Shown: one piece after another, positions 21,201 through 26,326 of the stretch
How positions within the stretch are numbered: position 1 is the first letter of the stretch
Layout: each line of letters begins with the position of its first letter
Translations under genes and position numbers: made by a program
Assembly: GCA_965223735.1 (NCBI GenBank)
Contig: OZ245010.1
Span: forward strand, 1,712,397 to 1,776,396
Reading direction: 5' to 3'
Length of the DNA stretch: 64,000 nucleotides
Origin: Candidatus Oxydemutatoraceae bacterium
Lineage (GTDB): Bacteria > Pseudomonadota > Gammaproteobacteria > Poriferisulfidales > Oxydemutatoraceae
The notes under the pieces: model-generated
Database searches by the model: none
What the model was told of the DNA's origin: nothing
Seen by the model: the letters and a program-made list of their open reading frames with translations, nothing else

Positions 21201-21388
21201 CTTCGTGCCAAGCGGCACTTTCGCCGATGGATATTCTTCGGGGTAGGGTTTTTATCCTCCACCGCACGTTGAAAAATTCGGCATCCCAAGTCAATTAGGC
21301 CGGTTGGTTTGTCATGCTTATCCGCCTCAAGCAATGCCCATCCTATGGAATTGCTGCCGAGATCAAGCCCTAACACCTTCTTGCTCAT
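18280..21388 (-). CDS. cas9: Cas9 (type II-C), with the reading frame interrupted near 18566-18572
   Basis: RuvC-I MSKKVLGLDLGSNSIGWAL at the N-terminus, HNH motif NTEIDHILPLSRSLDDSYMNKV and RuvC-III HRHHAIDAVV. The 942-aa frame stops at 18563. The last ~100 aa (GKDYEFVMALHINDLVSI..., alignable to the NmeCas9 PAM-interacting domain) continue in another frame as the 18280..18675 ORF. No csn2 or cas4, hence II-C. Confidence 0.85.
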
Positions 21389-21416
21389 AGATGCATTCTC
21401 GTATATACTGGCCAGT

Positions 21417-21527
21417 AGTATAACTGACCAAGGCCTATCGATTAGCTTTTCATACCAATGAAATATCTTTTTCGTAGGCAACGCTTTTAAGCGACCAAGA
21501 GCCCTCCCAGCGGGGGCTCTTTTAATA
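21417..21527 (+). ncRNA. Candidate tracrRNA: a 23-nt anti-repeat plus downstream hairpins and terminator. Strand assignment is uncertain.
   Basis: 21417-21439 (AGTATAACTGACCAAGGCCTATC) is the exact reverse complement of repeat positions 14-36. It lies 28 nt upstream of the cas9 ATG. On the plus strand it is followed by hairpins (TTTCAT-ACCA-ATGAAA, CGCTT-TT-AAGCG) and an intrinsic terminator at 21497-21527. Confidence 0.45.
21497..21527 (+). terminator. Rho-independent terminator (8-bp stem followed by TTTT)
   Basis: aagagccc-tcccagcg-gggctctt followed by tt. Confidence 0.5.
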
Positions 21528-21549
21528 TCTGGGAATTATAATAGATAAC

Positions 21550-21822
21550 CTAACGACAAGATTGCTCGTTGAGCATCAAGTGAAGTATTGTCACTCCGCA
21601 AACACTTTCTCGAGGATGTAAATTAATCTGTGTAAGCGGCCAGTTCATGTTATGATCGGCACCCGGTCGCCGAACAGTATGATGAACTGATCCAGGGCCG
21701 CTTTCCAGTCCCTGATCGGCAGCGTCCATTTCTTTGACGCATTCCGCAAACCAGGATACAGGCAGTTTCCGGATCGCGTCGTCATGTGGGAACGCCCTGC
21801 GCCCCTTGATCACTTTCCTCAA
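21550..21822 (-). pseudogene. C-terminal fragment of an IS256-family (mutator-type) transposase
   Basis: RRAFPHDDAIRKL matches the IS256 C-terminal motif (FPN[DE][DE]A.LKL), and NMNWPLTQINL resembles the family's (I)RNW..LNQL tail. The intervening region does not align and the upstream roughly 300 aa of a transposase are absent. Lower GC than backbone. Confidence 0.4.
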
Positions 21823-21851
21823 ACTGTAGTTCAGAGACTCGATATCCCTCC

Positions 21852-22067
21852 ATGGGCACTACCTCGCTATACCGGGCACTCATCGAGGCGAACGTGTCTG
21901 ATGGGACCACCAAGAAAGCAGTTGAGGGACTGATTTCTGTTAATGAGGCGGCTACGAAAATGGACATCGCCGAATTGGAAGTCAGGCTGATCAAATGGAT
22001 CGTTGCCACCGCTATTGCTGTCGGCGGTGCAGTCATTGCAGCCATGGGGTTGATCGCCAGGCTCTGA
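21852..22067 (+). CDS. Small coiled-coil protein with a C-terminal TM helix, XhlA/DUF1640-like (second copy of this type)
   Basis: The 71-aa ORF ends ...EVRLIKWIVATAIAVGGAVIAAMGLIARL. It shares the K-[TI]-x-W-[VI]-V...GAV[VI] pattern with the 14658..14831 ORF. Confidence 0.35.
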   Translation: MGTTSLYRALIEANVSDGTTKKAVEGLISVNEAATKMDIAELEVRLIKWIVATAIAVGGAVIAAMGLIARL

Positions 22068-22166
22068 TAAGCTTTCCATCGCCAAGTCAGAAGTCAAGCT
22101 GATCATCAGCGTGGAGCATTGCCGCCTTGATCATTGCGGTCGCGCATTGTCTTAAGGAGAGCGAAC

Positions 22167-22448
22167 ATGACTTCGACTCCCCGTCAATCAGAAGTAGCCA
22201 CACGCTGGCGTTCTCGCGGGTTCAGTTGTGACCTGTGGGTGGACCCGCCGGGGCAGTGCTGGGAGGATTTCACGCACGCGACCGACGAACTGGTGATGGT
22301 GGTCGAGGGTGAAGTCGAATTCGAGATCACGGGTGAGGTGCGCCGTCCCGCGCCCGGAGAGGAGCTGCTGATACCGGCAGGCGCCGTTCATTCAGTTCGC
22401 AATATCGGCGCCGGCACCGCCCGTTGGTTATACGGTTATAAGCGTTGA
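22167..22448 (+). CDS. Cupin-domain protein
   Basis: Good RBS (aaggaga) before the ATG at 22167. Conserved-barrel motifs ...ELVMVVEGEVEFEI..G.....PGEELLIPAGAVHSVRNIG. Confidence 0.5.
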   Translation: MTSTPRQSEVATRWRSRGFSCDLWVDPPGQCWEDFTHATDELVMVVEGEVEFEITGEVRRPAPGEELLIPAGAVHSVRNIGAGTARWLYGYKR

Positions 22449-22467
22449 GGCCGAGGCAGACGCCTGG

Positions 22468-23595
22468 TCAGTATAAGTGCGGTTTGTGTCTGTCCTTCGG
22501 CGGAAAAATCACTTTCAACTTATTCAGCGGCGTATTGCGGGGCAGATGTTTTTGGTGTTGCAAACATCCCACAACGACGCCCGGGTGGATATTCAATTCT
22601 TTTGCGAATTTGCGGATCGCATGCGCGGACTTTGAGGCTTGTTTGAGTTGTTCCGAGTACTGCTTCGGGATCAGCGTGTTGATCGCAAATTGGCTGGCTT
22701 CTTTTTCGAGTCTGTTTTCATCCGGCATTATTTTGTCGTCCCAGAATGCCATCCGTCGGCTTTGGTGCAGCAGAATGTGGCCGGCTTCGTGAAAGAAAGT
22801 CAGCCAGAACTGATCGTTGGTCTTGCCATATAGCGGCAGTTGGATCAGTGGCCGGTTGGGTCTCAGCCAGCGCGCGATGCTGCTGACGTGCGCTTTCCTG
22901 AAAGCAGGCGTAATCGCCAGATGCACACCTGCGTCGAAGCACAGTTTCTCTATCCCGTGCTCAATCTCCTGTGGTTTTTCGACGGTCAGGTTCCGGATCC
23001 TTGCAATCGCCTTACGGAATTTTACTTTGCCATATTTCGCCGGGGTGCCTTGTTCCTCGGCTTCTATCTCACCCGTGCGCAGCAAAGCTGAAACCGCCCC
23101 CATGTCCTGCCGGCGTTTTTTCGTCAGCGAGAGCATCCTTTCTGTCTCTTCAAAACAGCTTTTCCATTGTTTCGGGGAAGCCACGCCGTAGAATTTCAGC
23201 GCTTCCCGGACAATGCGCGGTTTGTTCCCGGCCGTCTGCCTGGATTTTTCAATGTACCCGTTGTTCATTAACTCCCTGATCGGTATTTGTCTGAGCCACC
23301 TCACCCATTTACGGTATTTTTTGTCTTGCTTCAGGCGTAGCAGTTCAGCGCGGTAATGTGCTTCGCGGGTAAGCCAGAATTTCGCGGAGGGGCCTCCCAA
23401 CACTTGCTCAAGCACCGCAGCCGTTCCTTCAGTGATAGGCGCTTTGCCGTTGAAGAGAAGGCTTACGTGCTTTTCAGACCATCCGGTTCTTTTTGAAAAA
23501 TCAGTCTGTTTCCATCCCCGAGACCTGATAATGTCCTTGATGGTATCTCCCGCAGGAGATACCCGGTCGGGCTCAAATGTATTTAAATCAGACAT
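22468..23595 (-). CDS. HigA-like XRE-family HTH regulator fused to an ImmA/IrrE (M78, COG2856) zinc-metallopeptidase domain
   Basis: N-terminal HTH (GWKQTDFSKRTGWSEKHVSLLFNGKAPIT) and C-terminal HEAGH zinc-binding motif (FFHEAGHILLH). Overlaps the stop of the upstream toxin-like ORF by 8 nt. Confidence 0.7.
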   Translation of the reverse strand: MSDLNTFEPDRVSPAGDTIKDIIRSRGWKQTDFSKRTGWSEKHVSLLFNGKAPITEGTAAVLEQVLGGPSAKFWLTREAHYRAELLRLKQDKKYRKWVRWLRQIPIRELMNNGYIEKSRQTAGNKPRIVREALKFYGVASPKQWKSCFEETERMLSLTKKRRQDMGAVSALLRTGEIEAEEQGTPAKYGKVKFRKAIARIRNLTVEKPQEIEHGIEKLCFDAGVHLAITPAFRKAHVSSIARWLRPNRPLIQLPLYGKTNDQFWLTFFHEAGHILLHQSRRMAFWDDKIMPDENRLEKEASQFAINTLIPKQYSEQLKQASKSAHAIRKFAKELNIHPGVVVGCLQHQKHLPRNTPLNKLKVIFPPKDRHKPHLY

Positions 23596-24244: not shown

Positions 24245-26326
24245 ATGAGACAGAATGCTTTGAATCACTTGCGGATCGCACTTGGTGATCCTCAAGCGGA
24301 GTTCAGGGATGGGCAATGGGAAAGTATTTCGCAGCTTTTAGATCGTAGAAGGGTGCTTGTCGTCCAGCGTACCGGTTGGGGGAAAAGCATGGTTTATTTT
24401 TTGGCGACAAAGCTTATTCGAGAGTCGGGTTCAGGGCCAACCTTATTAATTTCTCCGCTATTATCATTAATGCGCAATCAGATTGAGGCTGCCGCGCGAA
24501 TTGGCATTACACCCAGGAAGATAGACAGTACCAATACCGGCGAATGGGATCAGATCAGGCAGGAGTTGACCGCTGATCAGGTAGATATATTGCTGATTTC
24601 TCCCGAACGCCTTGCAAATGCTTCCTTTCGCCGGCAAGTTTTCCCTGTTATTGCAGAAAACATCGGGCTTTTTGTGATTGACGAGGTTCACTGTATCTCA
24701 GACTGGGGGCATGATTTCAGACCGGATTACAAGCGTATCGTTCGTGTCCTTCAAGCTATTCCTTCCAATGTTCCGGTGCTGGCAACAACGGCAACAGCCA
24801 ATGACAGGGTTGTGGATGATGTCAAGTCGCAACTCGGGGATGACATTGAATTGGCCAGAGGTTCTTTAGTCAGAGAAAGCCTCAAACTTCAGAATATAAA
24901 TATGCCCAGTCCCGCAGCAAGAATGGCTTGGCTGGCACAGACTATTCCAAATCTTCCGGGCAGTGGAATAATCTATACTCTGACTCAGCGCGATGCAGAA
25001 CGACTCACTGAATGGCTTCAGCGCAACAGAATTCGTGCGGAAGCCTATCATGCCGACATCTCAAACCGCGAAGTGTTGGAACAGCGGTTGCTTGATAATG
25101 AAGTAAAAGTTCTGGTTGCCACCGTTGCTTTGGGGATGGGATTTGACAAGCCTGACTTGGGGTTTGTAATTCATTTTCAAAGGCCTGCTTCCGTCGTTCA
25201 TTACTATCAACAGGTTGGTCGTGCCGGTCGTGCTGTTAAAGAGGCGTATGGCATTCTGCTTTGTGGCGAGGAGGACGATCACATTGCAGATTACTTCATA
25301 CGCAGTGCCTTTCCACCTCAGCAGCATATTACCGCCATCCTTGAAACGCTTGATAAGGCGGATGATGGCCTGCCACCATCATCAATGCAAAATTTTTTAA
25401 ATATCAGCGGGTCACAAATTAAAAAAACGATCAAATATCTGACCATAGAATCCCCTTCTCCGATTGTAAAAGACGGTTCTAAATGGTATGCGACAGCTTC
25501 GGCGGCTGACTATGCAATTGATCAGGGGTATATAGAGGCAATTACCCGGATCCGGAGACAGGAACAGCGTCAGATGCAGGAATATATGGAACACAGAGGA
25601 TGCCTGATGGCATTCCTCCAAAATGCGCTCGATGACCCCAACTCACAGGGCTGCGGTAAATGCCGGAATTGTAACCCCGGACTTCTGCTTTCTGAACAGT
25701 ACAGCGATGAATTGGCAAACCAGGCGGCACTCTTTCTTAAAAGAGGCTGTCAACCAATCAAGCCTCGCAAGCAATGGCCCGCAGAGAATATGTTCAAACA
25801 TTATCCACTTGGAGGAAGGTGGATTCCACCAAAATTTCGAGCCTCTAAAGGTCGTGCCCTGAGTCTGTGGCGTGATGCCGGTTGGGGGCAACTCGTTGCC
25901 AAAGGGAAATATGAAACTGGAAGTTTTGCAGATGAGCTTGTAACCGCGTGTGTCGAGATGATTGCAGCATGGGATCCCAGACCGCCCCCCGAATGGTTGA
26001 CCTGCATACCTTCACTTGATCATCCTGAGTTAGTTCCGGATTTTGCACGGCGTTTAGCGGGTGGCCTGAAGCTGCCGTTTATTCCCTGTGTTCGGAAAGC
26101 AAGGCAGAATGATCAACAGAAAACCAGGGAAAACAGCTTTCAGAAAGCACGAAATTTGGATGGTGTTTTTGAAATCAACCTTGAACGGAATGATCCGTGC
26201 CTGTTGATCGACGACGTGGTTGACTCGGGGTGGACTTTTACCGTTGTATCCGCTTTGTTGCGTCAGGCGGGTTGCACGGCGGTTCGTCCTCTGGCATTGG
26301 CGCTTAATTCTCCAAGGATGAATTGA
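24245..26326 (+). CDS. RecQ-family SF2 DNA helicase with a RecQ-type Zn-binding motif, C-terminally fused to a ComF/GntX-type phosphoribosyltransferase (PRTase) domain
   Basis: Motif I RTGWGKS, motif II DEVHCISDWGHDFRPDY (RecQ DEAH box), III ATTATA, VI QQVGRAGR. Cys cluster CLMAF..GCGKCRNCNP like the RecQ zinc finger. C-terminal type-I PRTase signature NDPCLLIDDVVDSGWTF. GC about 47%. Confidence 0.8.
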   Translation: MRQNALNHLRIALGDPQAEFRDGQWESISQLLDRRRVLVVQRTGWGKSMVYFLATKLIRESGSGPTLLISPLLSLMRNQIEAAARIGITPRKIDSTNTGEWDQIRQELTADQVDILLISPERLANASFRRQVFPVIAENIGLFVIDEVHCISDWGHDFRPDYKRIVRVLQAIPSNVPVLATTATANDRVVDDVKSQLGDDIELARGSLVRESLKLQNINMPSPAARMAWLAQTIPNLPGSGIIYTLTQRDAERLTEWLQRNRIRAEAYHADISNREVLEQRLLDNEVKVLVATVALGMGFDKPDLGFVIHFQRPASVVHYYQQVGRAGRAVKEAYGILLCGEEDDHIADYFIRSAFPPQQHITAILETLDKADDGLPPSSMQNFLNISGSQIKKTIKYLTIESPSPIVKDGSKWYATASAADYAIDQGYIEAITRIRRQEQRQMQEYMEHRGCLMAFLQNALDDPNSQGCGKCRNCNPGLLLSEQYSDELANQAALFLKRGCQPIKPRKQWPAENMFKHYPLGGRWIPPKFRASKGRALSLWRDAGWGQLVAKGKYETGSFADELVTACVEMIAAWDPRPPPEWLTCIPSLDHPELVPDFARRLAGGLKLPFIPCVRKARQNDQQKTRENSFQKARNLDGVFEINLERNDPCLLIDDVVDSGWTFTVVSALLRQAGCTAVRPLALALNSPRMN

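Follow-up and report, generated by a model that had tools for sequence, protein, structure and literature searches.

A predicted plus-strand tracrRNA gene antisense to cas9 in a type II-C CRISPR-Cas9 locus and its relatives

The CRISPR-Cas9 locus

The window, that is the whole stretch of 64,000 nucleotides that was analysed, carries on its minus strand a cas operon followed by a CRISPR array. The operon comprises a type II-C cas9 gene (18280..21388, minus strand; TIGR01865, E = 1.5e-169), whose ATG lies at 21388-21386, then cas1 (18287->17388, minus strand; cas1_NMENI, 5e-85) and cas2 (17391->17059, minus strand; 2e-22), the last two together occupying 17059..18287. The array (16448..17010) contains nine identical 36-nt repeats with spacers of 29-30 nt and is assigned to the plus strand from the strand of the predicted tracrRNA. 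Read on this strand, the repeat is GTTGTGAATTGCGGATAGGCCTTGGTCAGTTATACT, with GTTGTG at its 5' end and TATACT, a -10-like hexamer, at its 3' end.

The cas9 reading frame is interrupted by a frameshift within an A6 run at 18635-18640 of the minus strand (CACAAAAAATGGC). The first ORF extends from 21388 to 18563 on this strand (941 aa) and a C-terminal ORF follows in another frame (18675->18280), of which a stretch of about 115 aa aligns with residues 935-1047 of a full-length homologue at 50% identity. An identical truncated Cas9 of 941 aa was called in a separate Logan assembly (run ERR13605531). Because the array repeats and the anti-repeat described below are still perfect despite this lesion, the frameshift arose recently, is phase-variable, or stems from a sequencing error in the homopolymer. 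Given the frameshifted cas9, the CRISPR-Cas9 system may be non-functional in the source genome.

The anti-repeat and the predicted tracrRNA gene

Upstream of cas9, the minus strand of 21417-21439 carries a tenth copy of the last 23 nt of the repeat, with 0 mismatches, and this is the sole copy found outside the array; no such match was obtained in 100 shuffles. The gap between this anti-repeat and the cas9 ATG measures 28 nt (21389-21416). Both the exact match and its distance from cas9 had been reported in the original prediction and were recovered here, as were two hairpins and a terminator downstream on the plus strand, at about 21458-21475, at 21477-21496 and with a terminator stem at 21499-21519.

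The predicted tracrRNA gene spans 21417..21523 on the plus strand (about 107 nt), with a predicted transcription start site (TSS) at or next to A21417 and a predicted end in the U-tract 21520-21523. All its parts are read on that strand. It opens with the anti-repeat (21417..21439), which provides one strand of the upper stem and is the perfect complement of repeat nt 14-36. A tracr-side bulge, GAUUA (21440..21444), lies between the upper and lower stems and varies from 0 to 8 nt in length among relatives. The lower-stem strand, GCUUUUCAUACC (21445..21456), is invariant or nearly so in 43 loci; its GC is found opposite repeat nt 11-12 and its UCAUACC opposite repeat nt 1 and 3-7. It is followed by an AA junction (21457-21458) and a nexus hairpin (UGAAAU...UUUUCGU, about 21458-21475), together at 21457..21475, with three compensatory pairs in the nexus helix. 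A second hairpin (21477..21496), in which GG...CC closes CGC/GCG, precedes the intrinsic terminator (21497..21527), made of the G+C-rich stem and a U-tract (TTTT).

A search of the interval 16000-22500 against Rfam gave no tracrRNA family at E <= 10 and returned three chance matches. The Rfam models do not include this tracr lineage, which reflects on the models and not on the function of the tracrRNA. A 7-nt self-complement upstream of the anti-repeat (GGCCAGT at 21410-21416 versus ACTGACC) was considered as a feature resembling tracr-L and was rejected, being specific to the window and unconserved. Across the aligned relatives, no conserved upstream extension of the tracrRNA of the tracr-L type was seen.

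Conservation of the module among relatives

More than 3,400 Cas9 homologues were found at E <= 1e-30 and, among the matches listed, these are about 55-65% identical to the window's Cas9 and 1,025-1,050 aa long. From an alignment of 25 Cas9 proteins, 80 genomic loci were obtained in species-representative genomes, spanning methanotrophs, Thiotrichaceae, SUP05-like bacteria, sponge symbionts, Binatia, Nitrospiria and others. An array is present on the contig in 45 of the 80, with a clearly homologous repeat of 36 nt.

In each of the 45 array-bearing loci the best repeat-like match upstream of cas9 has the opposite orientation to the repeat of the array and covers nt ~14-36. Its distance to the ATG is mostly 27-32 nt, reaches 45 nt in a few loci and is 303-416 nt in four SUP05-like ones. 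In these SUP05-like or symbiont loci (L062, L067, L073 and L075) the whole tracr module lies 300-416 nt upstream of cas9. Since the arrangement is present in 45/45 array-bearing loci, the inverted anti-repeat upstream of cas9 is, judging from these sequences, a trait of the whole clade and no accident of one genome. A comparison with tracrRNA positions in Cas9 orthologs, suggested as a check in the original prediction, gives the same arrangement in all 45 array-bearing loci. The module also appears displaced in L068, as judged by its core motif.

A module of about 110 nt, read antisense to cas9, is common to the 45 array loci. Its order is a -10 box, the anti-repeat, the bulge, GC-UUUUCAUACC, the AA junction, the nexus hairpin, the second hairpin and the terminator, and its core motif was also found antisense and upstream of cas9 in 29 of 30 further loci having upstream DNA. 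The nexus stem co-varies among loci (GAAAU/AUUUC, GGAA/UUCC, GAAG/CUUC, GAAGCC/GGCUUC) and is followed by GUAGGC-AACGC-UUUCAA-GCG-ACC, then by a G+C-rich hairpin and a T-run. The pairs of the terminator stem are kept in 43/43 aligned loci (96.5% of cells), and the T-run after it is present in nearly all loci, solely on the strand antisense to cas9. Beyond the terminator, no conservation was observed across loci.

Two peculiarities were seen among the relatives. The tracrRNA of Methylovulum miyakonense HT12 (L012) contains an internal duplication of the lower-stem/junction segment (…TTTGCTTTTCATACCAATG…GTGCATTTTATACCAATGAG…). In two other loci the array includes long intervals, of 1361 nt (L034) and 1426 nt (L044) versus the usual ~30 nt, which are probably insertion elements.

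Structure of the predicted guide RNA

Alignment A2 was built from 43 chimeras, each joining the repeat of a locus to its own tracrRNA through a GAAA loop; L012 was excluded. Run unprompted on these 43 loci, RNAalifold returned a lower stem, GC pairs, an upper stem, the second hairpin and the terminator. The lower stem joins repeat nt 1-12 to the conserved tracr segment (GUUGUGA:UCAUACC and GC:GC), RNAalifold pairing repeat nt 1 and 3-7 (G, UGUGA) with UCAUACC and nt 11-12 (GC) with GC. In the full model with the nexus, 96.7% of cells are paired, versus 39-43% when the partners are slid by 1-3 columns. Compensatory changes were observed at 21 pairs, 13 of them among the 23 upper-stem pairs, and 0 of 500 shuffles reached the observed values. 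The window's own chimera of repeat and tracrRNA folds at -74.2 kcal/mol (z = -10.6), and its MFE and centroid folds show the same architecture.

The lower stem is nearly invariant, its only variation being a change from A7 to G7 that is still paired as G·U, and the G1:C pair is present in 42 of 43 loci. Support for this predicted stem consists of conservation and a fixed register, without covariation. By chance, two short segments that are free to slide against each other match at 6 of 7 positions fairly often, but here repeat nt 1 and the AA junction fix the register. When the window's repeat was cofolded with a real spacer, the spacer took repeat nt 1-13 and masked the lower stem, an ambiguity that comparative folding resolved.

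The perfect 23 nt are thus shown computationally to form the upper stem only, and the bulge and the imperfect lower stem complete a full-length hybrid. The original prediction held that a plus-strand tracrRNA would force a non-canonical crRNA, with its handle 5' of the spacer, and this proved wrong, as repeat nt 1-12 pair as well. Because the entire repeat is engaged and its nt 1 borders the AA junction and nexus, the guide has the canonical Cas9 geometry, with the spacer on the 5' side of the repeat. What had been called a puzzling geometry is an artefact of counting perfect complementarity alone; once the lower stem is counted, the geometry is ordinary for Cas9 guides, contrary to the original view that either strand would be unusual. 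More generally, searches for exact-match anti-repeats mislead in such systems, because perfect complementarity marks the upper stem, whereas the lower stem, which is critical for function, pairs imperfectly.

Another pairing was found in the free tracrRNA (21448-21464, plus strand), in which UUUCAU can pair with AUGAAA, with 94.7% of cells paired in the 43 loci. This hairpin (columns 73-78 with 83-88 of A2) includes one compensatory change from U:A to C:G, in L003 and L004, and is incompatible both with the crRNA lower stem and with the nexus hairpin. It may act as a folding switch or simply reflect the U-rich/GAAA composition.

Strand of the tracrRNA and rival explanations

The two strands can be compared through the wobble pairs that they would allow. 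Over the 23 upper-stem pairs of the 43 loci, there are 49 G·U pairs and 20 mismatches if the plus strand is read, as against 9 G·U pairs and 60 mismatches for the minus strand. Counted per locus, 28 vote for plus and 5 for minus, these counts being phylogenetically non-independent. Folding in both orientations, which had also been proposed as a check, gives the tracr architecture on the plus strand (at the z-score already cited) and, on the minus strand of the window, a fold no better than shuffles (z = -0.6). The sequence evidence places the predicted tracrRNA on the plus strand, antisense to cas9. The plus-strand layout first described (5' anti-repeat, hairpins, terminator) is upheld by the wobble counts, by the side on which the T-run is found and by the displaced modules. 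The identification of the element as a tracrRNA, a predicted function, likewise stands on the conserved module, the covariation and the fold of the window's own sequence.

According to a rival reading, the anti-repeat would be used in cas9 sense, as a 5'UTR element at the start of the cas9 mRNA or as a long-form tracrRNA running into cas9, and would pair with the first 23 nt of minus-strand repeats; the original prediction took such a tracrRNA to be what canonical geometry demands. The perfect pairing would then directly adjoin the spacer, the cas2-distal position of degenerate repeats fits cas-sense transcription of the array by the usual rule, and the cas9-sense anti-repeat ends in a -10-like TATACT or TACACT. 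However, no conserved nexus or terminator lies downstream in that direction, where the next 28 nt hold the cas9 Shine-Dalgarno (SD) sequence and ATG, and the poor fold and wobble counts, together with a T-run found after the terminator stem on the plus strand only, argue against it. The four displaced modules retain the whole RNA in its plus-strand, antisense form at 300-416 nt from cas9. This minus-strand candidate was rejected and is considered very improbable. Another reading keeps the tracrRNA on the plus strand and gives it a non-canonical crRNA, in which the 3' 23 nt of the repeat would serve as a Cas12-like 5' handle for the downstream spacer. It draws on the fact that the sole perfect complementarity, with repeat nt 14-36, abuts that spacer. 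Yet nt 1-12 complement an invariant tracr segment in a register that sets nt 1 next to the nexus and its AA junction, Cas9 is an ordinary II-C protein, and the arrangement with nt 1 paired is that of every characterised Cas9 guide (Faure 2019, PMC6546382), so that we give this possibility very little credence.

The element might finally be an orphan degenerate repeat with no RNA function, possibly a relic of an inverted array or a mere fragment of the cas9 promoter. Anti-repeats of tracrRNAs are thought to derive from repeats (Faure 2019, PMC6546382; Chylinski 2013, PMC3737331), and the fragment bears the repeat's -10-like hexamer, facing cas9. Against this, repeat and anti-repeat co-vary among loci with Cas9 proteins only 48-63% identical to that of the window, the anti-repeat is always joined to the same structured and terminated RNA, and compensatory changes are not expected of a relic; this explanation appears the least probable of all. 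The preferred reading, a plus-strand tracrRNA engaging the full-length repeat, is the one followed below.

Direction of array transcription

Repeat and anti-repeat need the same strand, a piece of logic in the original prediction that is correct, and a plus-strand tracrRNA therefore implies plus-strand crRNAs. We infer that these would be transcribed toward cas2 and convergently with the cas operon. Of the loci with degenerate terminal repeats, 12 have them at the cas2-distal end and one has them at the proximal end; by the usual rule, the distal position points to transcription of the array in cas sense. The rule of the degenerate last repeat gives the wrong direction for Neisseria meningitidis and Campylobacter jejuni, in which experiments showed the array to be transcribed against the direction of the cas operon (Chylinski 2013, PMC3737331). 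In the same work, anti-repeats of II-C systems were mostly found upstream of cas9 (Chylinski 2013, PMC3737331).

Among the loci the repeat ends in TATACT, TACACT or TACAAT. In the 43 aligned loci, T31, A32, A34, T36 and G29 are invariant, and nt 33 and 35 co-vary with the anti-repeat. Each repeat of N. meningitidis and C. jejuni reportedly contains a -10 element. The terminal hexamer of the repeat described here, which has neither a full TG (TGn) extension nor a -35, fits a putative -10 element of this kind in each repeat.

Promoters and the start of cas9

The predicted tracrRNA promoter (21381..21409, plus strand) consists of a -35-like TTGCTC (21381-21386), a 17-nt spacer and the -10 hexamer TATACT (21404-21409), the latter lying 7 nt ahead of A21417 within the 28-nt gap. 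The TTG of the -35-like element is the reverse complement of cas9 codons 2-3, and the promoter spacer bears the SD region of cas9 on its opposite strand, so that the tracrRNA promoter would overlap the start and the 5'UTR of cas9. This promoter was not flagged by a simple promoter scan because its -35 matches only in TTG. In 36 of 46 loci the anti-repeat is preceded, at 7-10 nt, by a -10-like hexamer (TATAAT or TATACT); of the four displaced modules, three are among these and the fourth has the hexamer at 12 nt.

The overlap may explain the conserved spacing of ~27-30 nt between the anti-repeat and cas9, an explanation confounded by the Met-Ser-Lys coding constraint. Tight overlap with the cas9 start is not obligatory, because the SUP05-like and symbiont modules, with their own TATAAT box, sit 300-416 nt away. 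The predicted overlap raises a small regulatory question that lends itself to testing.

As nothing past the terminator is conserved, the cas9 promoter is either context-specific or inside the tracr module. Inspection by eye of the tracr gene in cas9 sense gave no convincing -35/-10 pair for cas9 except the hexamer of the anti-repeat. Read in this sense, the anti-repeat presents the repeat's -10-like hexamer, TAnAnT (invariant T, A, A, T), 27-30 nt before the ATG, and this end of the anti-repeat is the sole conserved TAnnnT hexamer in cas9 sense. It could be the cas9 promoter. That the ~60 bp between cas9 and the body of the tracrRNA hold two interdigitated divergent promoters is a prediction that we regard as rather unlikely. 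If it were true, the polymerase would start either the tracrRNA or cas9, never both, which would couple their ratio, and the cas9 promoter would be portable within the module, which would be sensible given the lack of conservation past the terminator.

Proposed model

Taking as its basis the anatomy, conservation, covariation and strand asymmetry observed in the sequences, the model reads 21417-~21523 (plus strand) as very probably a canonical plus-strand tracrRNA of a type II-C CRISPR-Cas9 system, with predicted TSS, ends and processing. A predicted sigma-70-type promoter would drive the tracrRNA divergently from cas9; the transcript would begin at the anti-repeat and stop at the intrinsic terminator. 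The array would be transcribed on the same plus strand toward cas2, as logic and precedent suggest, and, by analogy with N. meningitidis and C. jejuni, crRNA transcription may begin at the -10-like elements that end each repeat.

Within the predicted hybrid, repeat nt 14-36 would form a perfect upper stem of 23 bp, which is a likely substrate of RNase III. A 5-nt tracr bulge would come next, and repeat nt 11-12 and nt 1-7 would form the imperfect lower stem with the invariant GCUUUUCAUACC. After the hybrid would come the AA junction and the nexus, second and terminator hairpins. In the RNA presumed to be loaded into Cas9, the spacer would lie on the 5' side of the repeat.

Comparison with known systems

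A generic type II guide consists of a lower stem, a bulge and an upper stem with nt 1 paired, an A or AA junction, a nexus and a Rho-independent terminator, and II-C tracrRNAs typically have such a junction (Faure 2019, PMC6546382). All these modules, as well as distal hairpins, are present in the window's predicted hybrid. It differs from the generic guide in its lower stem, which opens with G:C and not with the common G:U and is interrupted by one U·C mismatch and by an internal loop in which repeat nt 8-10 face UUU. A generic architecture of type II guide RNAs has reportedly been defined in other work too.

The closest solved structures are those of type II-C Cas9 proteins including Nme1Cas9 (6JDQ), at E ~1e-64 to 1e-70; Nme1Cas9 itself is only a distant relative of the window's Cas9, which it matches over part of the protein at E ~1e-64. 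[quoted passage not shown] The array and the tracrRNA would likewise run opposite to the cas operon, and degenerate repeats are cas-distal in both although transcription runs, or here would run, the other way. [quoted passage not shown] The window's imperfect lower stem, its perfect upper stem and its -10 with no full TGn also set it apart from these two systems.

In Streptococcus pyogenes the tracrRNA gene is said to lie upstream of cas9 on the opposite strand, and a long isoform reportedly represses the cas9 promoter. The S. pyogenes array is co-directional with cas9 and the tracr gene is about 200 bp away. The window resembles it in having the tracrRNA gene upstream of cas9 on the other strand, and differs from it in a predicted tracr promoter that overlaps the cas9 start and 5'UTR and in showing no evident long isoform. 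The Cas9 guide of Parvibaculum lavamentivorans presumably has a similar repeat start (GCUGCGGAUUGCGG versus GUUGUGGAUUGCGG in L003) and, as we take it, a lower stem that is imperfect and U-rich like that of the window's clade. No literature text on this guide was found, and the likeness is a lead and not a test.

Searching the literature with the repeat and tracr core sequences returned array listings and no open-access description of the tracrRNA, and neither a solved structure nor an Rfam model was found for this Cas9 clade or its tracrRNA. As far as sequence can tell, the element has everything that can be looked for computationally in a II-C tracrRNA: an anti-repeat to its own repeat outside the array, an intergenic position adjoining cas9, cas1 and cas2, a lower stem, bulge and upper stem, a paired nt 1, a nexus with AA junction and a Rho-independent terminator. 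The analysis provides a guide design (spacer, 36-nt repeat, linker and ~107-nt tracrRNA) for a large uncharacterised II-C Cas9 clade that spans more than 3,400 homologues in methanotrophs, sulfur oxidisers, sponge symbionts, Binatia and others. The result is otherwise mostly housekeeping, and a specialist would not be surprised by it.

Genomic surroundings

The G+C content of the CRISPR-cas island (17000-21600) is ~38-42%, versus 56-65% in the flank 10000-16000, which suggests that the island was horizontally acquired. Relatives of the window's Cas9 loci are found across many phyla.

On the array side lies a direct duplication of ~1.4 kb (12905-14290 and 14999-16385; ~95% identity, offset 2094 bp), each copy of which encodes a thymidylate synthase (thyA) and a dihydrofolate reductase (folA). 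The second thyA/folA copy stops ~60 nt short of the first CRISPR repeat. A candidate degenerate repeat at 16327-16362, within the 3' end of the duplicated folA, shares a 10-nt exact core and about 20/36 positions with the repeat; owing to this weak match and to its location inside folA, it was treated as chance and not as an array remnant.

Past the tracrRNA, an HTH plus Peptidase_M78 (IrrE/ImmA-like) protein is encoded at 22468-23595 (minus strand), and a RecQ-like DEAD/Helicase_C protein with a phosphoribosyltransferase domain at its C-terminus at 24245-26326 (plus strand). These two genes fit a mobile or defence island.
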